64,000 nucleotides of DNA from Pseudomonadota bacterium (GTDB lineage Bacteria > Myxococcota_A > Polyangia > Palsa-1104 > JAEUJZ01). Where the stretch lies: NCBI GenBank assembly GCA_035328405.1, contig DAOLIT010000028.1:577-64576 (forward strand). Reading direction: 5' to 3'. The translations under genes were made by a program, and so were the position numbers. Below are positions 9,901 through 50,815 of this stretch, in pieces. Position 1 is the first letter of the stretch, and every line of letters starts with the position of its first letter. The notes below the pieces were generated by a model. That model was given only the letters and a program-made list of their open reading frames with translations. It searched no databases and was not told the origin of the DNA.

Positions 9901-12900
9901 CTGAATCCCTTTCGGACTCATCCTCGTCGTCCAGATCGTTCTCTGTATCCAGTGAGTTCGTCTTTGGTGGCGGTCCAATTTCAACCTGCGTCCCATGCAC
10001 ACGAGTTGTCACGCCAGTCATTGAATTGCGGAGTCCTGTTGAAGAAACCTCGGAACCGAAACTGTGAATGCCAGGCCCGCCCCCAAAGGTTCCGACTCCT
10101 CCAGTGATTCCCATGAGTCGAATCCCCTTGAGCGCATTGATAAGGACCTTGAGGGCATTCACAACGACCCCGTTCATGGCTGTGAGGTTCAGACCGGACG
10201 GCGTTTGCAACGACATTCCAGCCAAACTGGATAAGGTCATCCGTCCCAGACTTTGGTAGCTCGAACTTTTCTGCGAGCGGACCCACAACTTTTCGACGTC
10301 GATTTTCAGTTCACGACACTTGATGGTGATGGTGTCGCCGTGTTGTTCGATGCTGGCTTTGTGGTCTCCGTTTGCCGTCTCAATGCGGATGCCCTGTGGT
10401 CCCACGAGCACGGCGTGGCTGGCCTTGTGTGAAGGACAATCGATTTCCAAAGCAGCCCCACTCCCAGAGTCCATTCCAAACCGACAGTGGGAAGGAACGA
10501 GAGGTTCTCCTTGGGTCTCCGATCCGGGCCTGGGCAACGGAGGTAGTTCAGGCGGGGATTTGTCGTTGTTTTCTTCGCCTGTATCCTCGAAATCCTTGTC
10601 GCTGTCCTTGTCTCTGTCCTTTCCCCTGTCCTTGCCCCTGTCCTTGTTTCTGCTCTCGTCTCTGCTCTCGTCTCTGCTCTCGTCTCTGTCCTTGCCTCTT
10701 GGTATGTCGTTGGCAGCGAAACTCGGTACAGCATAGGGGTACTTTTCATCACCGATATCGCCCCATCCTTGATCGTACAAACCCCGTCTACTCGCTTGCT
10801 GGGGATTGTTTTTGCGGTTCGGTGTGCGTGCTCGTTCTGCGACGATGACATCCGCGTCAAATTCCGACTGTGGTTTTTCATCCAATTCGTGCGCAAGGAG
10901 TCCGTCCGCCTTCCGCATTCTGGCATTTTCGGATACGCGGGCATGCTTTTCTGTCCGCAGCATTTTTGTAGAGTGGAGTGTTTCTTTCGTGTCCGTTTCG
11001 TGAAGCGATTGTTCTGTCTTTGCGAGTTCCTGCAATTCTCGTTTGGCCTGTTCAGCGACGATCTTCCGCAGATTCCTCACAACCCAACGCGGAGTTTTTG
11101 CGGTGATGTCTGTTTTTCTTCCAACTTGGGGGACCGACTCCTGTGGGCCTCTGATGTGGTTTGCTTTTGGACTCTGTTTTGCATTTTTCTTCAAAAATTT
11201 CGCAGAGATGTTGTGCATGGCTGCGGCGTGCTTGGCCTGCGCTTTCAGGAGTGTCATCGTAATCACTTGGTCTGGAAGGCTTGCAGTAGGTCCGGGGACC
11301 TGTGCCTCAGCTTTCATGCCGCCCCCCATTCCTCCTGGCATGAGCGAAAGGAGTCCGGCTACCCCCGCCTTGCACTTGATCTCAAGCGCCTTGCTCAAAG
11401 CGAGCGTAGCCCTCTGGATGGCCAAATCCACCTTGGGACTGATCGGGGGAATCGACTTCTGTTCAATGCCGCTTTGGTACATGCGCAGAAACTGCATGGT
11501 GCTGTACCGTTGCCTTTGTATCTTGTATTCGGGCACGTCCTTGTCATACGTCAGTTTGTGTGTGACGCCGTTTGTGAAGTCGTGCCCGATCATGAGCTGG
11601 TTCCCCTGATTGCGCGACGGTATCGTCGCCATGGGTCGCCAGTCCAGATAACGACCCAGATCGGCTCTGTCGAAGTAGAGACTGACCTGTACGTGCTCCT
11701 TTCGATATGCAGGATAGAAGTACTGTCCAGGTTGAAAATTGGGAATGAAAGGGGTCTTGACGAGCTGGCAACCGAACACCGGCAATTGAATTTGATAGTA
11801 CTGCTGGCTACCAATAATCGTTGAGGCGTTTTCCCACGTTTGTGTTCCCGGCATGCCCATCATGGAATACACAATCCCTTCGACTTCCAGCGGATATCGG
11901 GGCTTCACATAGCTTGGTAAGGAGGGCTCTGTATCGCGGCCTGTTTTCAGAAAAACCGCCAAGGAACACGCAAACAGTCCCGTGCTTTTTGCGGACATCC
12001 TGGGCATCACATCGGTTTCGACGGTCTTGGCTTCAAACACCATGCGGGCGACGCGGTTGACTCGTCTGGCTGCTTTGGGAATCACAAATTCGTGGTTCGG
12101 AAAATCAAGGGGGTCCAAGTTGAAATCAAGACCCACACCCGGTGGAAAAGGCCTGGAAGGGAAGCGGCGAAAGTAGAGCAAAAACGCAGGAGATGGCTGG
12201 GAAAAGGTGGCCAACCGTTTGATGTATTCCATGGCAAAGTTCAACGGAACCGGCGTGGGAAACCACCTGTCTTGCTTCAGGGGAGAAAGCGCCTGCAAAT
12301 TCAGTACGGCTTGGGTACTCGCCACGCGCGCGGAGTCATTCCTAAGTCGCTCCTCATAAAAGCGTCCCATGGTTCCCGTTGTGACGATTTTCGCGATGTC
12401 TCTTGCAAAAATCTGGAACGGTTTGGGACGACGGGGGCGCTCCTGGATGACGTAGATGTTCTGTGAGTAATCGTAGGTCAGGGTGTGCTCCATCTCGTCG
12501 AGCCGCCAGACCAACCAGTCATAAAAACTCGCGCGCTCGGTAACGGAGTGTTGCCGATTCAGATTGAGGAAAATCTGGTCTTGTGGAAGCGAAAGGGGGA
12601 TGCTTTTCACCTTCACGTTGATGAGCAAATTGGCGTTCTTTTTGATCACCTGGGACATTGATGTGTTCGTGTACAGCTCAATGGGAAAATGTTGCTTCCA
12701 CAAAGCTTGCGCGGGGTCGCAAAACTCAATCGCATATTCACGGACAGAGACGATTAGATCATTGGCTTCGCGGCTTGTATGTTGACAGACCGTGTGCGAG
12801 GTGATGACCGCCGTAAGCAGCATCTCGATGGGAACCAAAGGGCCGTTCGGTGAAAGTCCTGGTTCCAGCAGTTGCGGGATTCCCACCATGGCAGGAACCG

Positions 12901-13849: not shown

Positions 13850-14225
13850 GCACAAGCTCCACAGTCACACTCCCGCTAGGTGTATGAAAGCGAATGAGCA
13901 ACTGACAGGGGAACCCCCAATAGCTAGACAGGATGGTGCCTTGCAGCTCAATGTAAAGCCGAAGTGTGTTGTCTCTGCCGTGTACTTTTAGACTGTTCAC
14001 GCGCAACCTGGGTTCGTACGTTGCGATGGTGTCGTTGATTTCACGCAGAAGAGTCTGTGTGGCGGCACTTCCGCCCGATTCCTTCAAGTAGTCTGCGGTG
14101 CCAAAGCTGTGAAGGAGTGAACCAAAGCCCCGGCGCGCATTGAGCACATGGTCTAGATTCCGCACCACGCTTTGTGCCTCTGTATCCTTGGGTGCGTCCG
14201 GCAAAAAGCGATTCAAAAACGACAC
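13839..14225 (-). CDS. tssE: TssE (gp25-like) baseplate wedge protein
   Basis: 128 aa fitting the GPW_gp25 pattern: VVRNLDHVLNARRGFGSLLHSFG...LLREINDTIATYEPRLRVNSLKV...LRLYIELQG. The GTG start is preceded by GGGGGAG. Confidence 0.85.
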   Translation of the reverse strand: MSFLNRFLPDAPKDTEAQSVVRNLDHVLNARRGFGSLLHSFGTADYLKESGGSAATQTLLREINDTIATYEPRLRVNSLKVHGRDNTLRLYIELQGTILSSYWGFPCQLLIRFHTPSGSVTVELVHGS

Positions 14226-15508: not shown

Positions 15509-16129
15509 CTACGTGGGGTTTGTGCGGCCCCACATCTTGGTGATCGGTGCCTTGTCTTTCGCAGCCAAGATGATCGACTGATTCAGACCTGCGGGGACGA
15601 TCTTGATCGAAAACGCATAGAAAGAGTTGTCTTGGATAGACAGGTCGTCATTGTCGTTGAGGTCGATCGCCAGCTCGCGGTCCCCTTCCTTTAAGACTTT
15701 GCCTTTCAAGAGTGGTGCATCAAAGCATGCATAGTATTTCTTGGCTGTTGAGAGTGGATCGTATTCAAAGACTTTCACTGCAAAGTCTACACTGATATCT
15801 GTCAGACTTGCGTACAACAGATTGACCAGCGTCTGTTTGAGCATAATGGGAACAAGTCCCTCTAGGATAATGGGATCAGTCGCTCCCAAGTCCCAGCGCA
15901 CTCGCGTCAACAGAGCCACCGCATTGACCTGCCCAGCGGTCTCGGCCCCACCCGCTCCCGCCGCCGCTGCTGGCGCCGCCGCAGCCAGACTCGGATCTTT
16001 GCAGGCGATGATGAAGGGGGTGACGATCAGTGACAAATCAAATTTGGCCATATAACCAAATGGTGCGCGCGAGTTGGGTTTGTGATTGATTGCTTGTTCG
16101 GGTGACAGTCGTTTGTCAAATACAAACAT
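15509..16129 (-). CDS. Hypothetical 206-aa protein occupying the Hcp/TssD position
   Basis: A strong AAGGAG sits 6 nt before the ATG. The gene lies between tssC and tssK, where hcp often sits. The sequence has alternating hydrophobic patterns that look beta-rich, plus an Ala/Gly-rich loop (AAAAPAAAAGAGGAETAG). I see no resemblance to canonical Hcp N-termini. Confidence 0.7.
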   Translation of the reverse strand: MFVFDKRLSPEQAINHKPNSRAPFGYMAKFDLSLIVTPFIIACKDPSLAAAAPAAAAGAGGAETAGQVNAVALLTRVRWDLGATDPIILEGLVPIMLKQTLVNLLYASLTDISVDFAVKVFEYDPLSTAKKYYACFDAPLLKGKVLKEGDRELAIDLNDNDDLSIQDNSFYAFSIKIVPAGLNQSIILAAKDKAPITKMWGRTNPT

Positions 16130-16177: not shown

Positions 16178-17665
16178 TTATCCCAGCCGACTTTCGAGCT
16201 TGAGTTCGATGTCCATTCCTTCAAACTGGATGTGCGGCAAAATGGAAACCTTGCAATCGTAGAAGCCGATGCGACCAGGCACAGCGTCCACCTTCACAGC
16301 GCAGGCCTTGAATGGAAAGCGGCGCATGGTGACGTCGTTCGGAGTCACCGCCGTGGTTACGTAGCGCGACAGCCAGCTCGTAAGTTGTTCCTTCAGGGAT
16401 TTGTCGTCTGAATTGTCGCCGATGTTGTCGCGCACGATGCTCTTGAAGTAGTGGGCGATTCGCGAAACAGAGAACGTGTACGCCAGGTTTGTGACCAGTT
16501 GGGAATTTTCGGTGTCCTTCGGATCGCGATATTCCTTGGGAAGCTTGATTGCGGGGACGCTGAAGAACACGGCTTCTGCTGTGCCTTTGCGATGTACCAG
16601 GGACGCAATTCCACAACGGGTAAACTCCAATTCCCTGTAGTCGGGAATGTACATCTCGATCGGAATCCGAACTTCTGATTCTCCACGGACGTTGAAGGTA
16701 TCGACTGGAAGACCCGCGATATGTCCGCCGCCCCCTGGTCCGCGGATGTACTGACACCAACCGGATTGTTCAAAGGAGCGGATCAGGTTGCGCGCCAACA
16801 GCAAAGCAGAGTTTCCCCACAGGTAGTTTTGTCGTTGTCCGCGAGTCACTTCCACAAACTGAAGTCCGGGGCTCGGATTCGTTTCCGGGTTCCAGGGCAG
16901 ACGAATCACGTACCGAGGGAAAGCCAGGCCGACGTATGCGGCTTCGGGGGTGTCCCGCAGGGCCAACCATTGACCGAATTTGGGTTGACTGAAAACACCC
17001 TCCAGGTCGCGAATGGCCTCGACTTCCTCGATGTCTTTGCAACCAAAAAACTGTGGTTTCACAGAGGTCAAAAACGGCGCGTGTGCCGCTGCCGCCACCT
17101 TGGACATATTCCGCAACCAGAACAGGTCGGCAGGGGACGTATCAAACTCATAAATACCCAACAAACATCCGTAGGGTTTGCCTCCGTACTGGTCGTACTC
17201 TGTCTTGTAGACTTTGCTGAACAGCGCGCCGGCGAACACGTCGGTGGAATTCGAGTCAAAATCCTGGTGCAGTTCTTCCTTGCTGGCGTCGAGCAACGCG
17301 ATCTGGATGTTGGATTCGAAATTGGTGGTTTCCACAAGACCATTGATTCCGCGCCAGGTGGCTTCCAGATCCTGAAAAACAGGGTGATGCAGAATTTCGT
17401 TCAACTGATCGTTCACCGTCTGGTCAATCTGGCGCACGACCTCGAGCACTTTGCCCTTTTCGATTCGCTCTGCAGACTCATCCAGGTTGCACAGCATCGC
17501 AGCCAAACCGGTCAGCAGACGCTCCTCCTGCGTGACATCCTCACGCGCAGCAACAAAGCGGTCTGAAAACATGCGGGTCAGACTTTTGGTTTCTTGTCCA
17601 AGTTGAGCGGCTTCCAGAATGCGAGGCAGAATGCGCGTCTGGGTACCAGTGGGTGTCTCGGCCAT
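16178..17665 (-). CDS. tssC: TssC / VipB contractile sheath large subunit
   Basis: 495 aa with classic TssC blocks: HHPVFQDLEATWRGINGLV, YGGKPYGCLLGIYEF, AAAAHAPFLTSV, AYVGLAFPRYVIRLPW, YLWGNSALLLARNLIRSF, RIPIEMYIPDYRELEF, VSRIAHYFK. AAGGAG precedes the ATG. Confidence 0.97.
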   Translation of the reverse strand: MAETPTGTQTRILPRILEAAQLGQETKSLTRMFSDRFVAAREDVTQEERLLTGLAAMLCNLDESAERIEKGKVLEVVRQIDQTVNDQLNEILHHPVFQDLEATWRGINGLVETTNFESNIQIALLDASKEELHQDFDSNSTDVFAGALFSKVYKTEYDQYGGKPYGCLLGIYEFDTSPADLFWLRNMSKVAAAAHAPFLTSVKPQFFGCKDIEEVEAIRDLEGVFSQPKFGQWLALRDTPEAAYVGLAFPRYVIRLPWNPETNPSPGLQFVEVTRGQRQNYLWGNSALLLARNLIRSFEQSGWCQYIRGPGGGGHIAGLPVDTFNVRGESEVRIPIEMYIPDYRELEFTRCGIASLVHRKGTAEAVFFSVPAIKLPKEYRDPKDTENSQLVTNLAYTFSVSRIAHYFKSIVRDNIGDNSDDKSLKEQLTSWLSRYVTTAVTPNDVTMRRFPFKACAVKVDAVPGRIGFYDCKVSILPHIQFEGMDIELKLESRLG

Positions 17666-17747: not shown

Positions 17748-18290
17748 CTACGCAAGCACCGTTCGGGGGGCCAACTCCTTGCGCGACAAAAGCTTCAGAT
17801 TCCCAAAGGGTTCAAGTTCCTTCCGCAGCTGCGCGCGTTCTGCTGCATTCCCAAGAATCTGTTGGAGCAGATTGCGCACATCCTTGCGGTTGTCCACTTG
17901 AGCCATCATTTCAAGGAGCACTTTTCGCAGAAGGAGAAGCGACCGAATCTGCGGAATGTTGCTGGCGACCTCAGCCGGATTGAAAGACTTGCGGTTCGTG
18001 ATGGGAATGTCGACTTCAAGCTCTCCAGCCTCGGGGTCGAGGTGATTTTTTGCGGCGAGCTTCAAACGGATTTTCATGTTTTCCATGAGCTCGTCGATGT
18101 TCTTGGCATCCAGGTTGCGTAGCCGGCGCGTTTCCAGATCGACACTGCGATCGGTAGACGTTCCATGCGACAAATCTGCCAGCACGATCAAACGAAACGG
18201 GAGTTCCACTTCCTTGAGCTGACCTTGCACATTGGTTTCGTAAGTCAGGTTGACGCGGGAGCGCGGGATCAATTGTTGAATCGACTTCAC
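17748..18290 (-). CDS. tssB: TssB / VipA contractile sheath small subunit
   Basis: The 180-aa product starts at GTG 18290 (VKSIQQLIPRSRVNLTYETNVQGQLKEVELPFRLIVLADLS...), preceded by AAGGAGGA 5 nt upstream. This matches the TssB pattern (R.RV.I.Y......veLPF...VlaDls; FNPAEVASNIPQIRSLLLLRKVL). The track ORF extends to 18542 with no support. Confidence 0.9.
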   Translation of the reverse strand: MKSIQQLIPRSRVNLTYETNVQGQLKEVELPFRLIVLADLSHGTSTDRSVDLETRRLRNLDAKNIDELMENMKIRLKLAAKNHLDPEAGELEVDIPITNRKSFNPAEVASNIPQIRSLLLLRKVLLEMMAQVDNRKDVRNLLQQILGNAAERAQLRKELEPFGNLKLLSRKELAPRTVLA

Positions 18291-18330
18291 GGTGTCCTCC
18301 TTATGGGGTGAGAGATACCGTGACTGTGAC

Positions 18331-18347
18331 AGCACTGACCATGCCAA
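18331..18347 (-). promoter_or_regulatory. Candidate sigma-54 (-24/-12) promoter for tssB and downstream genes
   Basis: The minus strand reads TTGGCAT-GGTCA-GTGCT, against the consensus TGGCAC-N5-TTGCW with correct GG/GC spacing. It lies about 40 nt upstream of the tssB GTG and 110-150 bp downstream of a palindrome array. Confidence 0.6.
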
Positions 18348-18453
18348 CTTCCCAATCACCGCCGCACTGCATTCGGTCAAAACTTTGCAAGGGAAACCCG
18401 GTGTTTGGGACATGCCGAGAGCATTCATCCCGACGACAAACGCGGGAGTGGTC

Positions 18454-18485
18454 TGTGCGCTCAACATGCGCACACTGCGCGCACA
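18454..18485. promoter_or_regulatory. Array of 11-bp-phased GC-rich palindromic decamers (putative upstream activator/operator sites)
   Basis: The plus strand reads TGTGCGC-TCAA-CATGCGCACA-C-TGCGCGCACA, with units starting at 18454, 18465 and 18476. The same motif family and phasing occur at 27050-27095. Confidence 0.6.
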
Positions 18486-18514
18486 TACTTGCTGTTGGGA
18501 AAGACATGTACCGT

Positions 18515-18967
18515 TTATGGGAGTCCCCTTCCCAAACGACATTCTTTGACTTGAGGAATGATCATTCCGGTTCGACCAAGCGGAACAGAAATCGTCCAGG
18601 GAAGTGGTGGAGGAAGCAGCAATTTCCAGCTCCCTGTCGTTGAATCCAGCAGCAAATAGATCCCCACAGATTTGTCACTGGGAACGGTCAAAAACATCCT
18701 CCTTTTTTGATTCGGTTCAAGCAAGAGAGTCCGAATCACCGTCTTGTCTGGCTTCACTGCAAGCTGAACCACATCCGCGTAACTTTCGTCGCGGTATTGT
18801 TCGGAAGAAACAGTCCGAACCAGCACATGCAGAGGCCTCCCCTGGTTTGTGTCTTGGTGGCTTTGGACCGTCACCCACATTCGCCAAGACGAACACCCAC
18901 TTTGCAACAAAAACAATGCAACCAAACACCACCATCCAAAAGAAAATCGACGCAGCGCGGGGTTCAT
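18515..18967 (-). CDS. tssJ: TssJ-like (VasD/SciN-type) outer-membrane lipoprotein
   Basis: 150 aa with a signal peptide and lipobox-like LLQSGC. The body fits the TssJ pattern (RPLHVLVRTVSSEQYRDESYADVV...RRMFLTVPSDKSVGIYLLLDSTTGSWKLLL). An ATGA overlap joins it to the tssM stop. Confidence 0.7.
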   Translation of the reverse strand: MNPALRRFSFGWWCLVALFLLQSGCSSWRMWVTVQSHQDTNQGRPLHVLVRTVSSEQYRDESYADVVQLAVKPDKTVIRTLLLEPNQKRRMFLTVPSDKSVGIYLLLDSTTGSWKLLLPPPLPWTISVPLGRTGMIIPQVKECRLGRGLP

Positions 18968-21900
18968 GGTGATGTAACCCGAAACAGCAACCAGGGATCG
19001 GGCGCGATCACAAAGCGAATCACTTGAACTTCTCCCGCTCCCTCATCGTGAATCCGCCACGTACTTTCCCCGTCGTTTTCCACAGTGCTTTTTTGCAGCA
19101 GCCGAAACAGACTCCACGCAGAATCGGCCACTTCCAACGTCTGCGTGTGTCTGCGTCCCGATTTGCTCGATGTACTTTCGATTCCCACAAGCGCGGCCCC
19201 CTGATTCCACCATTCGATCGATACCGAATCCGCAGTCGTGCGCTGGTTGAGTCCATAGAAGGTATTTTTTCCTACGCGCAAAAAGGCCACTGATGGCTGT
19301 ACTCCTGCACCCTCTTGCGCCCGTTTTCCTTGTACACCCCGAATCGTCAAACGGAGTGGTTGACGGCCTCCTTTTGCGTCGAAAAGTACCCGACTCAACT
19401 TTGCGATTTGGTTCACCGTTTTGAGCAACTCGGAAGGCAAAGGAAGGGCACCCAAACTGCTGCGCCGTGGTCGATACAAACCGTCTTGCAGCACAATTGC
19501 GGGTTCATAAAACGATCGAACATCTTGGAAAAAAGACCCACTGCTTTCGTTCAGCACATCGAGTTCAGAAGGCGCAACCTCACGTTCGGCGGAAGCGTGA
19601 AAGGGAAAACGCTGAAGAAGTGTCTGTAATTTTGGAAGAGCTTCTTTGTTCCAGTGGTCGGAAAGGGTCGTAGCAATGTCCTTTTCGCCTCGACGGTAAA
19701 CGGCCAAGAAGGGGTCCATAAAGGGTTTGCGGAATGCGCCCACAATCCCTGCTTTGTCCAAGAATTTCTCTGCTTCAGAAAGAGGAGAACCATCCCCTGA
19801 ACCGGATGGTTGCGACATCAAGAGGGCACTTTTACCAAGCGGTCCCAAACGATCTGCAAGACCTGTTTTTCCGTCGGGATTCTTTCCGTCGCCCTTGCTG
19901 TGTGAGCCCCACGGCGCATCCAAAGACTCGGCCAATTTGGCTATCGTGGACAAATAGGGTTCAAGCCCTTTCGGTTTCTCGTCACTCCCTTCCACAGTCG
20001 CATTCCCTGGCCCATTCCCAACCGTGTCATTCCCTTTCCCGGCGGACTTTGGCGGAGTGTCCGTTTTCTGTGTCTCCTTCTCTGTCACCTTCTCTTTTTG
20101 TGGGACTTCAGGATTCGGCTTTTCTCGACGACGCTTGAGCAAATCAGGATTCACAACCCGAACCAGGGGTTCAAATTCCGCAAGACAGACTGCCAGCGGT
20201 TTCAAAAACGGATCATCCAAACCCGACAAGGCTGCGTTTTCCGCCACGGTTTGTACATGCGCCACAAAACGGGAGCCGGGTTTCACGATGTCTAGCAACG
20301 CGGTATGAACATCCTCGACGGAATGGCCGCTCCCTCGAATGTGAAAGTGATAGCTCAAATAGTATCGGGACAGTCCTTTGCAGTACTTGTCTGCATACCC
20401 CTCGATCTCATTCCGAACCAAGTGTGTGAGTCGGATTTTGTCCTCGGGTCCAAGCGCCTTGCTTTCCGCAACAGCCCTCCGCAATTCGCGCACCAATGGA
20501 AGGACTTCATGGTCAAACACCGTTCGGTTGTATTCGTCTCCCAAATCATCCGCAGGGAGTTCTCCGGTGCTCAAAAGATGTGCAATCCGTGGTCGGAGTT
20601 CCTCGTGGCTAAAGGGTGGCATATCGTGGCTGTGCCTGGACGGACGACACGATCGATCGCGACTGCTCTTTCCCGCATCGTCACAAGGGACACATTCCCC
20701 TCTTTTTCGCTTCCGTTCGGACACACAGCGGCAACACGTTTCTCGACTTGTATGGGAATGGGAATGCCCGCCTTGATGAACATGGTGAATGTGATGGGAC
20801 AATAGCCACCGCTTTCGACTCCGCAAAAGAAGATCCAGCCACCCCTGTTCGCTGATCTCCAGGATTTTTCCATTCGGAAATGCAAAATGCGTGGGCTCTT
20901 GGGGGAGTGTGGATCTTATCGCAGAGACACCTGTTCGTTTCTCTTCTCCAGACGACAGTGCATTCACGTAGCGCAAGAGTTGATAAAGACTCATGTGCCT
21001 GTGTTTGCCGGATTGCGCGCTACTTTCTTCGATCAAGCGCAAAAGGAGTTCCAAGTTGGTCAGGTTGTCCACCAGCCAAGGTTCAGGGAGGAGGACTCCT
21101 GCATCTCCCCCAAACAGTTTGTTCATGTCGAGCGGGGTTTCCTCTGCCAACATTTGATAGACGCGGCGCAACACGCTTGCTCGTCGCACACGCTCGATTG
21201 TTTCGCGCAGATTCAGGGTCTTTTTTCGCAAGTTCTCGAGTTGTTCGTTGGAAATCGAAGGCTGCAAAATCGCGTGCGCGATCGTTTGTACATACTCCTG
21301 CCACGGGCGAAGATCCGTCACGGGGTACTTCGCGGATTCGGTAGGAATCGGCGGCAAGAGGAGCAGAGCCTTGTCTTTCCAGGCTACCGGACTGTTTGCA
21401 ACGTAGTCTGTCAGCAGATCCACTGGAAGAGACAACGTTTCTGAAAAATCGCTGCGCTGCGTATCCAAAAGAGTTCCGAGGGCGGTTCCTTTTGCGGCAT
21501 ACAGCGCCGCAAGTGCATACAGAATTTTGTCCCTTGCACGTTGACGCACACCCGATTCCAGCGCCGGTCGCAGATAACCTTGCCGCAATCCCTCCACAAA
21601 ACTCTGTTCTGCGTCCGCTTTTTCCTTTCGTGCCAGCAAACGGAACAAACGAAAACGCTGCTCGTCTTGACGAAAATGATCGAGAGCCTGAGCGGCTTCC
21701 CGTTCACTGCGGCGAACCACATCCGATTCCCGCGGTGAAGACAGCGATTCCTGAGCCCGCCTCACACTCCTCTCAAACGCCTCGGTTGCGTCGGTGGCCA
21801 GCTTTACTTTGTGCGCGTGCCTGTGTGTTAAGTACCAAATCGGAAAGGCCCCCCCGAATAAAAGAAGAAGACTCAGCAACGTATGCAAGGGTCGAATGCC

Positions 21901-22974
21901 CAGCGCCAAAAACCAGCGCCAGATTCGCGTAAAGAAGCCGGGCGCTCGCGTTCCCTTGGCTAACACCGGATCAAACGGATTCCCAACCTCTTCATCCGAT
22001 GCAAGAGAGAAGAAGTACACAGCCTGTACATCGGGCCGAACAGAGGTTACTGCACCCTCGACAAGTGCTGTGATAAATGCGCGCACAGGCGTCATCAATT
22101 CCTGTGCTGAATGCAGTATCTCAATGCTGGCTTCAAACGGACCCACCGGCATGGTCGTCAGTGCGCGCGGCAGGTGTTTCTCATATCCTTGCAGAGCGGC
22201 CCCCAAACTGCTCTGCGCGTCGCCACCGGCATCCAGAACGAGTGGAATTTTGTTTTTGTGCAAAAAGCGCGAAAATTCCGAATACCCCGAAATCCGTTCC
22301 ATGTTCGTCAGGCATAAACGAGTATGAATCGGTGCCCCATAGATCTCTGTAAGCAGATTGATTTTTCCCCGAATCAGCTTGGCTTGTTGTCGCAAAACAT
22401 CGGGACTCATTGTGGACAGCACAGAGACCTTGAGAACGATGAGTACCGTCGGGATTTGTGCGGACGGAAGCGACGTTTTCCACAACTTTCGGAAACCATC
22501 GTGCGCTTCTCTGCTGGCCGATTGAAGCAGTGTTGAGGAAACTTCGTGTATCACGCACCGACTACCCAAATAAATCTGCAAAAGGGGGTCAGCCGTATAA
22601 CTTGGGAGGAACTGACTGGCTTGGCTCTGCCAATCGACACGCCGACTGATGAGCGCACTCTTGCCAACACCAGGATCACCAAAGACCAGAAAGTGATCAT
22701 AGTCCGAGAGTGCGACGCGAACACTGGCAGGAAGGGGTGCAAGAAAGCGCTGCCATATGGACAGAAGCCGTTTGCGGTTTGCTTGGTTCACTGCTCCTTG
22801 GCTGGGTCGTTCCGTAGGTGAACGTTTTCGAAACAGACGGACAACCAGATAGATCCCCCCGATCACGAAGGAAACAAACAGGATGGCGAGCAGAATCAGC
22901 GCGACAGTGTTCGTCCCACGAACCATTCCATCCGCCAACCCTGATGACATTCCGAGCATGGCTATCCCAACCAT
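18964..22974 (-). CDS. tssM: TssM / IcmF-family membrane-complex protein with a Walker A motif and a His/Cys-rich insertion
   Basis: 1,336 aa. It has an N-terminal TM, then DHFLVFGDPGVGKSALISR (Walker A, as in IcmF/TssM), then a TM block around FFTRIWRWFLALGIRPLHTLLSLLLLFGGAFPIWYL, then a long C-terminal region. Confidence 0.9.
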   Translation of the reverse strand: MVGIAMLGMSSGLADGMVRGTNTVALILLAILFVSFVIGGIYLVVRLFRKRSPTERPSQGAVNQANRKRLLSIWQRFLAPLPASVRVALSDYDHFLVFGDPGVGKSALISRRVDWQSQASQFLPSYTADPLLQIYLGSRCVIHEVSSTLLQSASREAHDGFRKLWKTSLPSAQIPTVLIVLKVSVLSTMSPDVLRQQAKLIRGKINLLTEIYGAPIHTRLCLTNMERISGYSEFSRFLHKNKIPLVLDAGGDAQSSLGAALQGYEKHLPRALTTMPVGPFEASIEILHSAQELMTPVRAFITALVEGAVTSVRPDVQAVYFFSLASDEEVGNPFDPVLAKGTRAPGFFTRIWRWFLALGIRPLHTLLSLLLLFGGAFPIWYLTHRHAHKVKLATDATEAFERSVRRAQESLSSPRESDVVRRSEREAAQALDHFRQDEQRFRLFRLLARKEKADAEQSFVEGLRQGYLRPALESGVRQRARDKILYALAALYAAKGTALGTLLDTQRSDFSETLSLPVDLLTDYVANSPVAWKDKALLLLPPIPTESAKYPVTDLRPWQEYVQTIAHAILQPSISNEQLENLRKKTLNLRETIERVRRASVLRRVYQMLAEETPLDMNKLFGGDAGVLLPEPWLVDNLTNLELLLRLIEESSAQSGKHRHMSLYQLLRYVNALSSGEEKRTGVSAIRSTLPQEPTHFAFPNGKILEISEQGWLDLLLRSRKRWLLSHHIHHVHQGGHSHSHTSRETCCRCVSERKRKRGECVPCDDAGKSSRDRSCRPSRHSHDMPPFSHEELRPRIAHLLSTGELPADDLGDEYNRTVFDHEVLPLVRELRRAVAESKALGPEDKIRLTHLVRNEIEGYADKYCKGLSRYYLSYHFHIRGSGHSVEDVHTALLDIVKPGSRFVAHVQTVAENAALSGLDDPFLKPLAVCLAEFEPLVRVVNPDLLKRRREKPNPEVPQKEKVTEKETQKTDTPPKSAGKGNDTVGNGPGNATVEGSDEKPKGLEPYLSTIAKLAESLDAPWGSHSKGDGKNPDGKTGLADRLGPLGKSALLMSQPSGSGDGSPLSEAEKFLDKAGIVGAFRKPFMDPFLAVYRRGEKDIATTLSDHWNKEALPKLQTLLQRFPFHASAEREVAPSELDVLNESSGSFFQDVRSFYEPAIVLQDGLYRPRRSSLGALPLPSELLKTVNQIAKLSRVLFDAKGGRQPLRLTIRGVQGKRAQEGAGVQPSVAFLRVGKNTFYGLNQRTTADSVSIEWWNQGAALVGIESTSSKSGRRHTQTLEVADSAWSLFRLLQKSTVENDGESTWRIHDEGAGEVQVIRFVIAPDPWLLFRVTSP

Positions 22975-23040: not shown

Positions 23041-24516
23041 CTACAATACTTGTCGTTCTCTCTTTGTATGTTGGTTCTTCGTTCTGTCTTTTCCCTTTCC
23101 ATTACCCCTATTGTTATTTTTGTCGTGGGACTTGAGTTTGGTTGTACCGCTGTCCTTTTTGCCGATGTCCTTCACATTCTGTGTTTCTGTTTCTTCAGCA
23201 TCTTTCGGCTTTGGGTTTGCCGCGAGTGCCGTCAGCACGACTCTTTCCGTGAGGTCTTTGCTCCGATCACAGGGAATGCGGAATTCTGCATATCCCTCCT
23301 TTCGGATAGACAGAACGTCCACGGATCTTGCATAGGTTCGCACTTGAAAAAGGGGTGTCTGTCCCAAGCTTTGTCCGATGGCGTCAAAGACCTCCGCGCC
23401 TTGCGGTTCGCTGTCGATGCTCCAACGTACTTGTTGTGGAGTAGAAGACTGTCCCGATAGCAGAAGCCGCATCACGATCCCGATTCCCAGAAGTCCTACG
23501 AGCAAAAGCAAACCTGCTCCAATTGCGACCCCACGATTTTCCGAAAGTGGGCGCAAGAGCATCGAAAATCCCCCTTCTGCGTCTTGCCGAAGACCAAAGG
23601 TTGGATTCCCCATCGGAAGGGATGGAAGATGTGACGGACTTGTATCCAGAATAGGAATGAGACCTGTGACTGATCCGCTCAAACGACCCAGGGTCGCAGC
23701 GATTTCTGCTGCACTTGGGCGGGAATCCGGCTGTTTGGCGAGCATTCTGTTGACGAGTCCCAAAAGCTCTGCGGGAAGACCTGGAACTTTGCTTTCAAGT
23801 GCAGGCGGCATTTGGCCGATGTGCGATGCCATCATCGCGCTGTCCGCCTTCATGGCTTCTACAAAGGGGTGTTCACCGGAAAGGGCCTCAAACAACATCA
23901 CGCCAAGGGAATACACATCACTACGATCGGTAACTTCACGAGCATCTCTGCACAATTCGGGAGACATGTATGCTGGCGTTCCCATCGACACCCCCATTCG
24001 TGTCAGGGGTTGTGCGGTTGCGCTTGTGGCGAGTTTTGCGATTCCAAAATCGAGGATTTTGGGCCGCTCACCGTCTGGTCCATCGGTGTCTGCAACAATC
24101 AGTACGTTTCCGGGCTTGAGATCCCGATGCACAATTTTTTTGGCATGTGCGGCTTGGAGTCCTGATGCAATTTGACGAAAGGTCTTCATGGCCTGCATCG
24201 GGTCCATTGAACCTCCCTTGGTCATCCGCTGCCGCAGGGTTTCTCCTTCCAGGTACTCCATCACAATGTATGGAGCACCCTCCTCCGTCGTGCCAAAGTC
24301 ATATACATTGACGACGCTGGGATGATTGATGATGTTTGCGGCTCGCGCTTCGTTGAAAAAGCGCTGTACAAATTCGGGATCTTGCTGAAGTTCTTTGGCC
24401 AATGTCTTGATCGCGGCACGTCGTTCGATTTGCGGATGGAATGCTTCATAGACAGAGCCCATTCCCCCTGTTCCGATCAATCGGACAATTTGATACGGAC
24501 CAATCTGTTTCTCCAA
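23041..24516 (-). CDS. Hanks-type Ser/Thr protein kinase, membrane-anchored, with a C-terminal PEGA-like domain
   Basis: Kinase motifs: GTGGMGSVYEA, AAIKTL, HRDLKPGNVLI, DFGIAKL, GTPAYMSPE. TM: VAIGAGLLLLVGLLGIGIVM. PEGA-like: WSIDSEPQGAEVFDAIGQSLGQTPLF...IRKEGY. The tail is Lys-rich. The TTG start is preceded by AAGGAGA. Confidence 0.95.
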   Translation of the reverse strand: MEKQIGPYQIVRLIGTGGMGSVYEAFHPQIERRAAIKTLAKELQQDPEFVQRFFNEARAANIINHPSVVNVYDFGTTEEGAPYIVMEYLEGETLRQRMTKGGSMDPMQAMKTFRQIASGLQAAHAKKIVHRDLKPGNVLIVADTDGPDGERPKILDFGIAKLATSATAQPLTRMGVSMGTPAYMSPELCRDAREVTDRSDVYSLGVMLFEALSGEHPFVEAMKADSAMMASHIGQMPPALESKVPGLPAELLGLVNRMLAKQPDSRPSAAEIAATLGRLSGSVTGLIPILDTSPSHLPSLPMGNPTFGLRQDAEGGFSMLLRPLSENRGVAIGAGLLLLVGLLGIGIVMRLLLSGQSSTPQQVRWSIDSEPQGAEVFDAIGQSLGQTPLFQVRTYARSVDVLSIRKEGYAEFRIPCDRSKDLTERVVLTALAANPKPKDAEETETQNVKDIGKKDSGTTKLKSHDKNNNRGNGKGKDRTKNQHTKRERQVL

Positions 24517-24556
24517 AATGACTAGTCTCCTTGATCAAGCTACATGTTGGGAACAC

Positions 24557-25498
24557 TCAACGAGGGAATCGTCTCCTGTGCTTTCTCTTGCCGGAAGGAG
24601 GAGGTTCAACTTCAGGGGAATCTGTCAACGGCGACGGTGGTGGCTCTACGACTGGAACATGAGGGGGAATGTAGAGTGGAAGGATCGGGACGACTGATGG
24701 CACCTGTCTTTTCGCAGGGGCAGCGGTGTCTTCCTGTTTGGCTTGCAGAAACAGAGGTTGCAAACTGGGCAATGGTTTCACAGGTTCTGAACTCTGTTCC
24801 AACACCGACTTCGAGGGCCTGCGAAATGAGAAGGAGAACGTCGGCACACCCATAAGGAGAGCAGCGCTTCCACCCGCTACGAGACCAATTCCTAACGAGC
24901 GCGTTGAGTACACCTGTTCACAGACCAGAGCAGGGGCTATTGCATCGCGCGTACATGTTCCGTTAAGTCCCAACATACCACCCCCAATGCCGATTGCACC
25001 AAGGCCTAGGAGACCCGTCGTCACACCAAGGGGGCGCAACCAAATTGGCATCGGTTTCTCTTTGGCAACGTACAAGAGTTTCGTTTTCTCGATCACCTGC
25101 GGAGCATTCGCAAGCCGTTCCTTTTCACGCGCTTCCACAAGGAGTGCATCGAGTTCTGCGGCTGTCTCGGGAGTCATTCCCGGATGTACCTTCCGGTACA
25201 ATTCGAGGTACACATGAGCCTCGCTCCACTTTCCAAGTTTGCGGTACGCTTGACCTATGTTGTACAGCAGCGCCGGAAGAGGGCGCACCGCATACGCCGC
25301 TTGCAAAAAGGGGATTGCAGCTTGGTAGTCTCCACTGCTGTACGCTTTGCGTGCGGCCTCATACGCCGATGCAAAGCCTTCCCCCTTCGCCGCTAGGTCT
25401 TCCTCCTGTGCCGCGCAGTGTGCCTGCGGGATTTCGCAAAGAGAGAACACAAACACTGTCGTCTGTACAATGTGTGCAAGAGGACTCTTCGTGGACAT
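24557..25498 (-). CDS. TPR-repeat membrane protein with a signal peptide
   Basis: The start at ATG 25498 (MSTKSPLAHIVQTTVFVFSLCEIPQAHCAAQ) avoids overlapping the upstream kinase stop at 25503. TPR-like: YSSGDYQAAIPFLQAAYAVRPLPALLYNIGQAYRKLGKWSEAHVYLELY. Gly-rich TM segments and a Pro-rich C-terminus follow. Confidence 0.7.
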   Translation of the reverse strand: MSTKSPLAHIVQTTVFVFSLCEIPQAHCAAQEEDLAAKGEGFASAYEAARKAYSSGDYQAAIPFLQAAYAVRPLPALLYNIGQAYRKLGKWSEAHVYLELYRKVHPGMTPETAAELDALLVEAREKERLANAPQVIEKTKLLYVAKEKPMPIWLRPLGVTTGLLGLGAIGIGGGMLGLNGTCTRDAIAPALVCEQVYSTRSLGIGLVAGGSAALLMGVPTFSFSFRRPSKSVLEQSSEPVKPLPSLQPLFLQAKQEDTAAPAKRQVPSVVPILPLYIPPHVPVVEPPPSPLTDSPEVEPPPSGKRKHRRRFPR

Positions 25499-25502
25499 CG
25501 TA

Positions 25503-26990
25503 TTACTTCCACAAATCCACTTGTACCTTCCCATCCGTCGTTGCTTCGGAATCCCTTCTTCGTCCTCCCTTTCCAGGTTTGGGTCCCTTTCCGCTTGTCT
25601 TTTTGTGGTCTATTGTCCCGCCGGAAGGAACCTTGTGTGAATCGTTTTTTACATCCAAATGTTCTGGTTCTATAACCGATTGGCTCAGATCAGGCAGGAC
25701 CAGTGGAAAGGGCTTTTCCGATGGATTAGTAGTCGTTTGAGGGCTCGGAAGAGGAGGTTGACTTTTCTTTTGGGCGAAGAAAAACCCCGCAAGAACCACA
25801 AGAACTGCAAGCATGATCAACAGAAGTGATGGCGTTGTACGTTCTCTCTGGGCAGAGCCGGTCTGAATCAATTCGCCACGCTTGCTTGCCCGATTTCCCG
25901 TCGTCAATTGAGATTCAAGGAGGCCGACTGGTTCCGTTACTTTTCGTTGTTGGTTGGTGTAGCCAAGGCAAGGGCGTTCGGAAATGGAGCCATCCGAAAG
26001 ACCCGTTTGGGGGATGGTGGTCAGCGCGTCCACAAGCTCGGCCATCGACGGGCGATTTGCAGGTTGTTTGTCCAGCAAACGATGAACGAGTGCGTCGAGA
26101 GATTCAACGACATGGGGAACTCTGTCCTTCAAACGAGGCGGAGTGCCAAACATCTGCAACGCAAACAGTTCACCAGCAGAGTCCGATACAAAAGGGGGTT
26201 CACCATACAAGAGTTCATACAGAATGATTCCAATGGAATAGACATCCGTTTTTTCATCAGGAGGGGAAGACGCACGACATTGTTCAGGGGACATGTACAT
26301 GGGTGTGCCAAGGAGTGTCCCCGTTCGCGTTGCTGCGTTCCCATCGGGACGTGTCCCCTCGTCGGGTAGAAGCTTTGCGATCCCAAAGTCTAGGATTTTC
26401 GCTCTTTTCCCGCACGTTGCATCCAGGTCCTGCACCAGAATCACATTCTCCGGCTTCAAATCACGGTGGATGATTCTTTTTGCGTGTGCCGCAGCCAGTG
26501 CAGAGGCCATCTGCGACACGATCTCTGTGGCACTGGTTCCTAAGTATGCTTCATCCTGAGCTTGTCTAAGCGACCTCCCGTCGAGATACTCCATCGCGAT
26601 GAACGCTTCCCCCAGATCTGTTTTTCCGTGCTCCAAAATGCGCACGAGGGACGGATGCTGCACCATTCCGGTCGCTTTTGCCTCCAGGAAGAAACGATTC
26701 ACGGCCTCCGGGCGACTGCTCAATTCAGGAAGCAGAACTTTGATTGCGGCTCTCTGTTGGTTGTCTGTGTCCAGGGCTTCGTAAACGGCTCCCATTCCCC
26801 CTTGTGCGATTTTTCGCACGACTCGATATCGACCCACCAACGATCCAATCACTGGGTCAGGAGGCTGGTTTGTGGGGGTGTTGCTGTCCACGTCGTGCCG
26901 TACCTCTTCGGCCCAATTCAGGGGACCGACCTTTGGCGGAAGCGAGAAAGAGCAAGCCCGGTGCCAAACAACCGCTGCGGTCTTATGCAC
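25503..26990 (-). CDS. Hanks-type Ser/Thr protein kinase, membrane-anchored
   Basis: Kinase motifs: AQGGMGAVYEA, AAIKVL, HRDLKPENVIL, DFGIAKL, GTPMYMSPE. TM: LLLIMLAVLVVLAGFFFA. The track start (GTG 26990) places a near-perfect sigma-54 promoter inside codons 8-14, so the real start is probably downstream, e.g. GTG 26891. Confidence 0.9.
   Translation of the reverse strand: MHKTAAVVWHRACSFSLPPKVGPLNWAEEVRHDVDSNTPTNQPPDPVIGSLVGRYRVVRKIAQGGMGAVYEALDTDNQQRAAIKVLLPELSSRPEAVNRFFLEAKATGMVQHPSLVRILEHGKTDLGEAFIAMEYLDGRSLRQAQDEAYLGTSATEIVSQMASALAAAHAKRIIHRDLKPENVILVQDLDATCGKRAKILDFGIAKLLPDEGTRPDGNAATRTGTLLGTPMYMSPEQCRASSPPDEKTDVYSIGIILYELLYGEPPFVSDSAGELFALQMFGTPPRLKDRVPHVVESLDALVHRLLDKQPANRPSMAELVDALTTIPQTGLSDGSISERPCLGYTNQQRKVTEPVGLLESQLTTGNRASKRGELIQTGSAQRERTTPSLLLIMLAVLVVLAGFFFAQKKSQPPLPSPQTTTNPSEKPFPLVLPDLSQSVIEPEHLDVKNDSHKVPSGGTIDHKKTSGKGPKPGKGGRRRDSEATTDGKVQVDLWK
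26951..26967 (-). promoter_or_regulatory. Candidate sigma-54 (-24/-12) promoter for the kinase-TPR-kinase-tssM-tssJ genes
   Basis: The minus strand reads TTGGCAC-CGGGC-TTGCT, a full match to TGGCAC-N5-TTGCW. It lies 85-130 bp from the palindrome array at 27050-27095. Confidence 0.65.
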
Positions 26991-27049: not shown

Positions 27050-27095
27050 TGTGCGCTCGATGTTGTGCGCACAGTGTGCGCGCATTGTGCGCACA
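27050..27095. promoter_or_regulatory. Array of 11-bp-phased palindromic decamers in the divergent control region (putative activator/operator sites)
   Basis: The sequence reads TGTGCGC-TCGATGT-TGTGCGCACA-G-TGTGCGCGCA-T-TGTGCGCACA, with full decamers starting at 27064, 27075 and 27086. TGTGCGCACA is a perfect 10-bp palindrome. Confidence 0.65.
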
Positions 27096-27290
27096 CTGGT
27101 TGGGGGGAGGTGCTCATGAAGAAAGTGAGGTCTTTTTCCGGGCAATTCGCGTTTGCGAAACCATCGAACGTGGGGCGGCTGGGCGTGAAGATCCAACAGA
27201 AGTCAGGCCTTGCATCGCGTAGAGCAATACGTCACACTGACGCACCACGTCCAGTGTCATGGACGGCTTTGAATCGGTAACAAGGCTTTC

Positions 27291-27306
27291 CGGCATGTTG
27301 GTTGCT
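27291..27306 (+). promoter_or_regulatory. Candidate sigma-54 (-24/-12) promoter for the regulator and NHL genes
   Basis: The sequence reads CGGCAT-GTTGG-TTGCT with correct GG/GC spacing. It lies about 75 nt upstream of the TTG start at 27380 and about 200 bp from the palindrome array. Confidence 0.55.
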
Positions 27307-27379
27307 TCTGGTTGAAGCTCGGTAGTTTTCTGCCTATTCATGGCTGTCTAGGCACCGATTTCAAGCGTAGGAGACCGCA

Positions 27380-28978
27380 TTGAGTAGTGAGCACCGTACT
27401 TGTGCCCCATCCGCCATCACGGGACCCGAGTTACCCATGGATACTGAGCACTCTCAACGAGCAGAATGCCTGGCTCTGGTGATTGCATGGTCCGCACGCG
27501 AACCCCATCGCGTTGGAGAAACCGGTTTGCTCTACCCCGAGAAACCGGAGCACATCTTGGGACGAGACCCGACGAACTTGTTAGAAAATTCGGGGGCAAT
27601 AGCTAGACTCCCTTTGGGTTCTGGGATCACCCCTAACGGCGAACTCCTTCCTGAAGCAGACATGCAGGGAGAACCCGTGGTTTTCTTTCGCCAACGACCA
27701 CAGGGTCTGGGCTTCAGCTCAGAGACTGAAAGGGGTAGCAGTATCCTGCACGGAGAGTCTCTTTCCCGGAGACAGCTCGCCATCCGTGTTGGAACTGACT
27801 CTCTGTTGGTTCGCAACATTGGTCGCTGTCGTTTGTCTGTGAATGGCCAAGTCGTGCGAGAAGCAATCGTTCGTTCGGGAGACACCCTTTATCTTAGGAA
27901 TCAACTTCTCCTGTATTGTACGTATCGTCCCCTTATCGCTCCTGGGCTGAAAGCATACCCTGTGGATCGTGTTCCCCCTTTTGGCGAGCCCGATCGAGAT
28001 GGAATGATCGGGGAGAGTCCAATCATGTGGAAACTCCGCGATCGGATCGCTGCGTGTGCGCGTACAAGTTATCACGTCCTGGTCGTGGGGGAGAGTGGTT
28101 GCGGCAAGGAGTTGGCAGCCCAAGCGATCCATTCGCTGTCGAATCGCGCGCATCGGAAACTTGTGGCAGACAACATCGCCGCGATTCCTCCCAGCTTGGC
28201 TTCTGCGCTTCTGTTTGGAAACAAAAAAAACTTTCCCAACCCTGGCATGGAGGAACGTGCGGGGTTGCTTGGATCGGCACATGGGTCTTCTCTGTTTCTC
28301 GATGAAATCGGAGACATGCCCGAGGAAGTCCAGCCGTTGTTTCTTCGCGTAACAGAGCACAATGGGGAGTACTTTCGTTTGGGAGAGGAGAATAGACTTC
28401 AGCAGTCAGACTTCCGTCTGATTGGAGCCACGAATCGACCCGAACAGATGCGGTATGAACTCAAGCGTCGTTTTCAACGCGAAATCCGCGTTCCAGGGGT
28501 TAATTCTCGCAAAGAAGATATCCCCTTATTGATACGCCATTTGCTGAAACAGCAGGCTGAAGCCGACGACGTGGATGCTTCCAGATTCATCGTAAATGGA
28601 TATCCAATGGTTCATCCACAACTCGTCGAGCAACTTATCCATCACAATTATAAAACACATGTCTCTGAGGTGATGTTTTTGCTCGGTCAAGCGATGTCGG
28701 AAAGTGACCACGACATCATTATGCCGCTTGGGTCAGGAATTAAACCAGAAACAGCCGCACGGCCTGCTCGGATCGATTCGGCAAAACGCTCATCTCCGCG
28801 TCCTCTTCCGTCGATAGATGAAGTGAGGCGTGCTTTAGATGAGCAAAAGTGGCACATCACGCGCACGGCCAATGCACTGGATATTTCGCGTGATCAACTC
28901 AACCGATTGATACGAAAAGAAGGCCTTCAAGTTGATCGAGGCAAGCAATCTATGCGCAGTTTCATTGAGGGAAAATAA
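27380..28978 (+). CDS. Enhancer-binding-protein-family AAA+ regulator (FHA-like N-domain, AAA+ core, Fis-type HTH) with a degenerate GAFTGA loop
   Basis: Walker A: VVGESGCGKELAA. Walker B: SLFLDEIGDM. Other AAA+ blocks: RLIGATNRP, VPGVNSRKEDIPLLIRHLL. C-terminal HTH: KWHITRTANALDISRDQLNRLIRKEGL. The N-terminal FHA-like block is SLSRRQLAIRVGTDSLLVRNIGRCRLSVNGQVV...GDTLYL. The GAFTGA position reads NFPNPG. The TTG start is preceded by AGGAG 6 nt upstream. Confidence 0.88.
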   Translation: MSSEHRTCAPSAITGPELPMDTEHSQRAECLALVIAWSAREPHRVGETGLLYPEKPEHILGRDPTNLLENSGAIARLPLGSGITPNGELLPEADMQGEPVVFFRQRPQGLGFSSETERGSSILHGESLSRRQLAIRVGTDSLLVRNIGRCRLSVNGQVVREAIVRSGDTLYLRNQLLLYCTYRPLIAPGLKAYPVDRVPPFGEPDRDGMIGESPIMWKLRDRIAACARTSYHVLVVGESGCGKELAAQAIHSLSNRAHRKLVADNIAAIPPSLASALLFGNKKNFPNPGMEERAGLLGSAHGSSLFLDEIGDMPEEVQPLFLRVTEHNGEYFRLGEENRLQQSDFRLIGATNRPEQMRYELKRRFQREIRVPGVNSRKEDIPLLIRHLLKQQAEADDVDASRFIVNGYPMVHPQLVEQLIHHNYKTHVSEVMFLLGQAMSESDHDIIMPLGSGIKPETAARPARIDSAKRSSPRPLPSIDEVRRALDEQKWHITRTANALDISRDQLNRLIRKEGLQVDRGKQSMRSFIEGK

Positions 28979-50660: not shown

Positions 50661-50677
50661 AGCACTGACCATGCCAA
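50661..50677 (-). promoter_or_regulatory. Candidate sigma-54 promoter upstream of tssB (second copy)
   Basis: Exact copy of 18331..18347. Confidence 0.6.
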
Positions 50678-50783
50678 CTTCCCAATCACCGCCGCACTGC
50701 ATTCGGTCAAAACTTTGCAAGGGAAACCCGGTGTTTGGGACATGCCGAGAGCATTCATCCCGACGACAAACGCGGGAGTGGTC

Positions 50784-50815
50784 TGTGCGCTCAACATGCG
50801 CACACTGCGCGCACA
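50784..50815. promoter_or_regulatory. 11-bp-phased palindromic decamer array (second copy)
   Basis: Exact copy of 18454..18485. Confidence 0.6.

Follow-up and report, generated by a model that had tools for sequence, protein, structure and literature searches.

The control of type VI secretion systems (T6SS) by RpoN (sigma-54) and an activator encoded in the secretion cluster itself has been described for VasH in Vibrio cholerae and for Sfa2 of the H2-T6SS in Pseudomonas aeruginosa, where -24/-12 promoters precede T6SS operons (PMC10482370; PMC8855297). A comparable layout was identified in a 64,000-nt stretch of the metagenomic contig DAOLIT010000028.1 (the window, in the following), which carries a T6SS cluster of an uncultured lineage of the Myxococcales/Polyangia. 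Here, too, the cluster includes a regulator gene of the sigma-54-activator family, and predicted -24/-12 promoters are located before T6SS operons. This analysis is focused on the 224-bp intergenic gap at 18291-18514, which extends from the GTG start codon of tssB at 18290 to the stop codon of a gene for a TssJ-like lipoprotein at 18515. The gap contains a predicted sigma-54-type promoter, P_tssB, and further upstream three phased decamers with the geometry of an upstream activating sequence (UAS). The model as a whole, with sigma-54-dependent promoters, decamer arrays as enhancers and the cluster regulator as both their binder and the activator, is given a probability of about 0.5. T6SS activators that work with sigma-54 and are encoded in the cluster are already known from Vibrio and Pseudomonas, and the layout alone would be a well-documented new example from the Myxococcota. 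What is unusual is the pairing of strictly conserved -24/-12 promoters and putative phased enhancers with a clade of regulators in which the GAFTGA motif is replaced, predominantly by NFPNPG.

The locus differs from the systems described in Vibrio and Pseudomonas in several respects. VasH, Sfa2 and Sfa3 carry the GAFTGA motif (PMC3804575; PMC8855297), whereas NFPNPG is present in the regulator described here, and its sensory domain is FHA-like and paired with Ser/Thr kinases. For Sfa2, one site in an orphan cluster has been mapped, about 2.1 kb from the RpoN site (PMC8855297), whereas the arrays found here are compact and only ~110-150 bp away from the promoter element. In V. cholerae, RpoN controls hcp/vgrG and not the sheath operon (PMC3804575), while the sheath genes are the predicted target in the present cluster.

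The window consists of a 32,330-bp unit in two head-to-tail copies with zero mismatches, and all features recur at +32,330; coordinates are given throughout for the first copy (Table 1). The presence of a sigma-54-type element with correct -24/-12 spacing in the tssB gap, as stated in the original prediction, was confirmed. In P_tssB, the GG at 18344-18345 and the GC at 18332-18333 lie 10 nt apart, and the element is located 40 bp before the tssB start. Two further sites with GG and GC 10 nt apart were identified, one before the regulator gene and one at the head of the upstream unit, 60 bp ahead of the kinase gene that is called from 26891. For the latter a start at ~26940 is predicted, and an identical copy of its 16-mer is present in the closest relative (L081). 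A scan with a position weight matrix (PWM) for sigma-54 promoters, which had been suggested for the genome together with the original prediction, was run on 64,624 positions of the unit with a matrix built from the promoters of relatives only. The three sites took the first three ranks, with scores of 18.1 for 26949-26967 (minus strand) and 17.2 each for 18329-18347 (minus strand) and 27290-27308 (plus strand), while the fourth best match reached 11.9. The total number of sigma-54 patterns in the window is not above that of shuffled sequences; only arrangement and position are significant.

P_tssB is intergenic, correctly oriented and conserved in orthologous control regions. The comparison comprised 14 distinct tssB upstream regions from metagenome-assembled genomes (MAGs) of the Myxococcales/Polyangia, with TssB proteins 50-73% identical to that of the window. 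A -24/-12 element with at most two mismatches was present in all 14 regions, 32-89 bp before the start codon; its GGC and TGC are invariant (2.0 bits each), and the flanks are unconserved. A triple repeat with an 11-bp period, centred 126-188 bp upstream, was found in 13 of them. Among the regulator genes of relatives, 16 of 30 have a sigma-54-type site (at most one mismatch) 45-108 bp upstream, compared to 2.6% of random 430-bp windows. The proposed combination of a UAS with a sigma-54 promoter was thereby recovered for the tssB regions and also for most regulator genes of the clade.

The three decamers of UAS-1 start exactly where they had been predicted, 11 bp apart, and the centre of the array lies ~125 bp upstream of the GG of the -24 element in P_tssB. 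The consensus TGYGCGCRCA that had been assigned to them is fitted literally by the third decamer but not by the first two, whereas each of the three has at most two mismatches to the palindrome TGTGCGCACA. The motif had been claimed to recur at 27050-27095 with the same spacing. It does recur there, as UAS-2, with four units of which two are perfect, and the spacing of 11 bp holds for the second and third interval, but the first one is 14 bp. Both arrays agree with the arrangement expected for an enhancer of a sigma-54 activator, which is two or more grouped sites at about 80-200 bp upstream of a -24/-12 element. As for the promoter pattern, the decamer total in the window is not above shuffles, and arrangement and position alone are significant. 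Two triple arrays with 11-bp spacing are present in the 32,330-bp unit and none in 9.7 Mb of first-order Markov sequence, and the number expected by chance, calculated from the Markov hit rate, is ~5e-6 per unit; the arrangement is therefore far beyond chance. Since 11 bp correspond to one helical turn, the units are located on one face of the DNA.

For NorR at norVW in E. coli, three enhancer sites are present and all are needed for ring assembly. The likeness to UAS-1 lies in the three grouped sites upstream of a sigma-54 promoter, which would be consistent with a hexamer assembly templated by the sites. However, the NorR sites are GT-N7-AC inverted repeats with a wider spacing, whereas the units here have 10-11 bp and abut at one helical turn. 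In addition, the units of the relatives are plain direct repeats, suggesting that one helix-turn-helix (HTH) binds each unit.

Metatranscriptomes from activated sludge indicated the approximate region in which the tssB transcript begins. In nine data sets, the contigs of tssBC all end within 18297-18307; no RNA contigs were found over 18308-18447 in these nine, and the upstream genes are sparsely covered. The boundary is crossed freely by DNA-like runs, so that the break does not stem from how this sequence assembles. Since all tssBC contigs end shortly after the predicted start, tssB is the first gene of a separate and more abundant transcript, which begins at most ~25 nt downstream of the -12 element, and tssC is cotranscribed with tssB. 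This boundary right after the promoter, with the DNA-like control passing through it, supports the earlier proposal that the sheath and baseplate genes form a separately controlled unit. The resolution of the contig ends for the tssB start is ~20 nt, which is compatible with the predicted start at ~18320. For the regulator side, the RNA depth is too low for judging the kinase promoter. One run labelled as RNA (X3) gave a 10.5-kb contig with a depth of 51 that covers the gap without a break; this run probably contains DNA and was set aside as uninformative on starts. As a separate observation, RNA fragments of the upstream unit with the TssJ-like gene end at 18448, 18479, 18503 and 18519 in four metatranscriptomes (depth 2-3), in or beside the array, and the array, or a protein bound there, might also stop read-through.

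No other gene of the sigma-54-activator type than that of the regulator was found in the cluster or within 10 kb on each side of the regulator gene, both in the window and in the closest relative. Its AAA+ domain matches Pfam PF00158 with E = 5e-35, and in the AlphaFold (AF2) model, which has a predicted local distance difference test score (pLDDT) of 88.5, this domain superimposes on NtrC1 (4lzz) with a template-modelling (TM) score of 0.86 and a root-mean-square deviation of 2.1 Å. Walker A and B, the switch Asn and both arginine fingers are kept, as judged from the alignment to ZraR, NifA and NtrC1 and from the columns of the clade. The L1 insertion has kept its length and is confidently modelled. 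The match to HTH_8 has E = 2e-4 and 21.5 bits versus a cut-off of 22 bits, with three short C-terminal helices modelled with high confidence. The FHA match is weak (E = 0.0056), and the signature residues GR, SxxQ and N vary little or not at all within the clade. An embedded enhancer-binding protein (EBP) of the VasH type had been suggested for the cluster. The AAA+ fold of sigma-54 activators, the location in the cluster and the sigma-54-type promoters before the T6SS operons are in agreement with it, but GAFTGA and the sensor II arginine are absent.

The repeat unit of the arrays was found to be lineage-specific, with GTGCGCAC in the window and in the closest relative, MAG-83, and GCGCGAGCA/TGCTCGCGC in other relatives. 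In four genomes (the window, JAEUKA, CAZKOY and CALFYE) tssB and the regulator gene are located apart, and both control regions bear the motif of their own genome. Likewise, arrays at the UAS-2 position are present in L081, L082 and L083, and in each the motif matches that of the respective genome. Elsewhere among the relatives, the regulator gene is divergent and adjoins tssB, with a single array shared by two divergent sigma-54 promoters. In the regulator HTH, the recognition helix reads ISRDQLNR together with the GTGCGCAC motif and I/MSRHQLNR together with the GCGAGCA motif, a parallel change that fits a co-evolution of protein and site. On this comparative evidence, the cluster regulator is probably the protein that binds the arrays.

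The following mechanism is proposed. Transcription would be initiated at P_tssB near 18320, and tssB, tssC and the following tube and baseplate genes would form a unit of their own. UAS-1, with its three sites of the GTGCGCAC type on one DNA face, would serve as the enhancer of this promoter, and the four like sites of UAS-2 would be placed between the divergent promoters for the kinase-tssM-tssJ unit and the regulator gene. That this architecture of promoter and enhancer is functional is judged highly probable. The FHA-like/AAA+/HTH regulator of the cluster most likely binds these sites, presumably with one HTH per 11-bp unit, as the plain direct repeats of the relatives imply. It would assemble into a ring on the arrays and activate its own promoter as well as the other two, resulting in a positive feedback. 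A phospho-threonine signal from the two Ser/Thr kinases of the cluster, which are candidate inputs, probably reaches the FHA-like domain first. In FHA-domain EBPs of Myxococcus xanthus, FHA is used as an input domain. The combination also resembles PpkA-Fha1, in which genes for Ser/Thr kinases and an FHA module accompany those of the T6SS; there, however, the FHA protein acts post-translationally on assembly, whereas here a weakly matching FHA-like domain is fused to a transcription regulator. A threonine-phosphorylation pathway has been listed for T6SS (PMC10482370).

The step of this mechanism that is inferred above all others is that the NFPNPG regulator itself remodels the sigma-54 polymerase, and the assignment of the regulator as the direct activator is tentative. 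Several findings weigh against the proposed mechanism. In the L1 loop, NFPNPG occupies the ungapped GAFTGA position (residues LFGNKKNFPNPGMEER), and the sensor II arginine is lost, with THVSE aligning to NIREL of ZraR and with T407 and E411 invariant in the clade. The regulator is not classed as a canonical EBP, since the defining GAFTGA feature was looked for and is absent. GAFTGA has been described as essential for the contact to sigma-54, and the GAFTGA-less homologues TyrR, DhaR, HupR and VpsR were reported or argued to be sigma-70 dependent (PMC3162934). In three relatives (L082-L084), a canonical FHA-EBP with GSFTGA is encoded directly downstream of the NFPNPG gene (for example L083, 5553-6995), which hints at a partner. 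The link between HTH and motif is based on few independent lineages. On the RNA level, the tssBC contigs stop 13-23 nt short of the predicted start, so that the start is not pinned to the -12 element; short-read assemblies usually miss the true 5' ends, which would explain this difference. Two regulator-gene contigs of low depth begin at 27274 and 27301, which is 16-43 nt upstream of the predicted start at 27317, and a second, basal promoter for the regulator gene is possible.

In the main alternative, the same promoters and arrays are used, but the NFPNPG regulator would be a DNA-bound partner, an anti-activator or a repressor, and a canonical GAFTGA EBP encoded elsewhere would be the motor, possibly in mixed rings or by recruitment. 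This alternative is considered rather unlikely, yet it draws on the absent GAFTGA and sensor II arginine, on the GAFTGA-less homologues of the literature and on the gene order in L082-L084. It is further favoured by the tandem arrangement in L091 and L095, where another NFPNPG paralogue, without a promoter of its own, comes after the NFPNPG gene, and by PexR of M. xanthus, a myxobacterial EBP which binds dyad-symmetry repeats located upstream of sigma-54 promoters and both represses and activates from there (PMC12754779). PexR, however, has a GAF sensor, a canonical GAFTGA and unrelated target genes, in contrast to the FHA-like domain and NFPNPG of the regulator described here. A motor encoded elsewhere is opposed by the absence of a canonical EBP from the cluster and, for the window and its closest relative, from the flanks reaching 10 kb to each side of the regulator gene, and beyond L082-L084 no relative has a canonical EBP in the flanks examined.

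The conservation of the loop itself also argues against this alternative. Among the best 120 metagenome homologues, which are 41-79% identical to the query, NFPNPG is exact in 93, the rest having NYPNPG or xFPxxx; canonical GAFTGA was found in none of the 120 and in none of the relatives examined. In the genome collection, all members of the clade have an identical or near-identical NFPNPG. This prevalence, together with the retained loop length, switch Asn and arginine fingers, has the appearance of selection for a functional L1 surface and not of decay. TyrR, DhaR, HupR and VpsR are likewise AAA+ proteins of the PF00158 family without GAFTGA, but in these the loop is deleted or decayed and the promoters are of the sigma-70 type, whereas a full-length NFPNPG loop and conserved -24/-12 elements are present here; among deviant loops, a preference for Thr-to-Pro has been noted (PMC3162934). 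The DNA pattern for NFPNPG was found at only 30 loci from ~14 MAGs, which are labelled Myxococcales/Polyangia or, for three third-party annotation (TPA) assemblies, just Pseudomonadota. In the literature, no paper with the string NFPNPG was found, and none combining GAFTGA, Myxococcus and FHA. It is possible, if somewhat doubtful, that NFPNPG is a working alternative to GAFTGA, and that a clade of T6SS-linked FHA/AAA+/HTH regulators activates the sigma-54 polymerase via a different L1 tip and assembles on head-to-tail 11-bp sites rather than on dimer palindromes. The alternative tip would perhaps be matched by changes in region I of sigma-54.

Little weight is given to the readings that invoke a different factor, a different type of promoter or an RNA element. 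That the arrays are bound by a transcription factor encoded elsewhere, while the neighbouring regulator controls other targets, is improbable. In its favour, the Myxococcota encode many regulators and the HTH_8 match is marginal. On the other side, the arrays precede the regulator gene and tssB in every genome examined, the array sequence changes together at both places, and the regulator genes of the clade are always physically linked to T6SS genes, adjoining either tssB or the T6SS kinase genes. Still less probable is an unused -24/-12 element, with tssB transcription from another promoter type near 18300-18310 or a 5' end made by RNA processing, and with the repeats acting in the RNA, for example by terminating or stabilising the transcript of the upstream unit: the contig ends at 18297-18307 instead of 18320 and the upstream fragments ending at 18448-18519 would suit it, but neither a sigma-70-like site nor a minus-strand terminator was found in 18000-19000, short-read contigs are expected to stop short of true 5' ends, the orthologous arrays are direct repeats with little hairpin potential, and the invariant GGC...TGC in 14 diverged regions would be left unexplained. 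An RNA structure of the array was likewise rejected, as the fold of this region is no better than that of shuffles (z = 0.02) and a U-tract is absent.

If the NFPNPG regulator activates sigma-54 directly, activators could no longer be called reliably by their GAFTGA motif, and a natural variant would be available for studying the contact between loop and sigma-54. Otherwise, the cluster would exemplify an AAA+ protein that is bound to DNA as a partner or anti-activator, while the motor is a separate protein.

Table 1. Features of the tssB control region and its surroundings (first copy of the repeated unit unless indicated)
Feature	Coordinates	Strand	Basis and remarks
P_tssB, predicted sigma-54-type promoter, TGGCATGGTCAGTGCT	18331..18346	-	14/16 match to TGGCAC-N5-TTGCW; predicted start ~18320
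Predicted sigma-54-type promoter of upstream unit (kinase, TPR, kinase, tssM, tssJ-like), TGGCACCGGGCTTGCT	26951..26966	-	16/16 match
Predicted sigma-54-type promoter before regulator gene, CGGCATGTTGGTTGCT	27291..27306	+	14/16 match; predicted start ~27317
UAS-1, decamers TGTGCGCTCA (18454), CATGCGCACA (18465), TGCGCGCACA (18476)	18454..18485	.	starts 11 bp apart
UAS-2, four GTGCGCAC-type decamers at 27050, 27064, 27075, 27086	27050..27095	.	between two divergent sigma-54-type sites
Inferred tssB 5' untranslated leader, ribosome-binding site AAGGAGG at 18296-18302	18296..18320	-	sequence; RNA contig ends
tssBC RNA contig ends in X26, X27, X31, X32, X33	18299, 18300, 18299, 18300, 18297		metatranscriptome contigs
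tssBC RNA contig ends in X34, X35, X36, X37	18302, 18307, 18299, 18300		metatranscriptome contigs
Regulator, 513 aa (alternative start TTG 27380)	27437..28978	+	FHA-like, AAA+ of sigma-54-activator fold, HTH_8
tssB (VipA family), 180 aa, GTG 18290	17748..18290	-	Pfam PF05591, E = 2e-39; orthologue N-termini and ribosome-binding sites align at GTG 18290
tssC (VipB)	16178..17665	-	Pfam; individual RNA contigs cover both tssB and tssC
IglE_N-domain lipoprotein (TssJ-like), last gene of upstream unit	18515..18967	-	Pfam PF22361, E = 4e-19
tssM	18964-22974	-	
Ser/Thr protein kinases (25503-26891 and 23041-24516), TPR protein (24557-25498) between	23041..26891	-	Pfam Pkinase, TPR; gene calls
Second copy of P_tssB and UAS-1	50661..50815	.	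32,330-bp unit duplication

Searches with TssC and the regulator in 185,579 species genomes placed the window in its Myxococcales/Polyangia lineage, with MAG-83 having a TssC 82% and a regulator 75% identical to those of the window. The window sequence was found at 100% in many activated-sludge metagenomes; the organism is expressed and abundant there, and T6SS-mediated antagonism may matter in this habitat.

The two copies of the unit are joined at 31809/31810 (64139 equivalent), and in the 64,763-bp source metagenome contig the regulator gene is present twice. In a different sludge assembly, an 82-kb contig shows no difference up to 31809 and then continues with kinase and aconitase genes in place of tssG. 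The two copies may have arisen during assembly, or else the unit truly exists in a tandem or circular form. A plasmid or circular origin of the cluster, which was considered because of the doubled unit, was rejected, as a linear chromosomal context is seen in other assemblies.

The 32,330-bp unit is a type VI secretion cluster with nearly all genes on the minus strand. In order of coordinates, these are tssG-like, DUF4280/PAAR-like, dotU/tssL, tssF, an open reading frame (ORF) of 2311 aa, gp25/tssE and tssK, followed by an ORF of 206 aa at the Hcp position, tssC, tssB, the gene for the TssJ-like lipoprotein, tssM and the kinase, TPR and kinase genes. The regulator gene and the following gene for an NHL-repeat protein are on the plus strand. 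tssB is the first gene of the sheath/baseplate unit. Automated calls extend it to an ORF of 264 aa (17748-18542, ATG 18542), by which the gap would become coding; this version was rejected, being contradicted by the RNA boundary, the ribosome-binding site, the start of the Pfam domain and the N-termini of the orthologues.

Three ORFs of the cluster stand apart. The ORF of 635 aa at 2055-3962 has a faint match to AMP-binding enzymes only, with E = 0.004 and below the cut-off. The ORF of 2311 aa (6920-13855), between tssE and tssF, contains long charged low-complexity stretches with zero Pfam matches, and might occupy the place where a VgrG/spike or effector gene is expected. The ORF of 206 aa (15509-16129), at the usual position of hcp, has zero Pfam matches as well, and together with the lipoprotein of the IglE_N type it suggests a divergent T6SS subtype.

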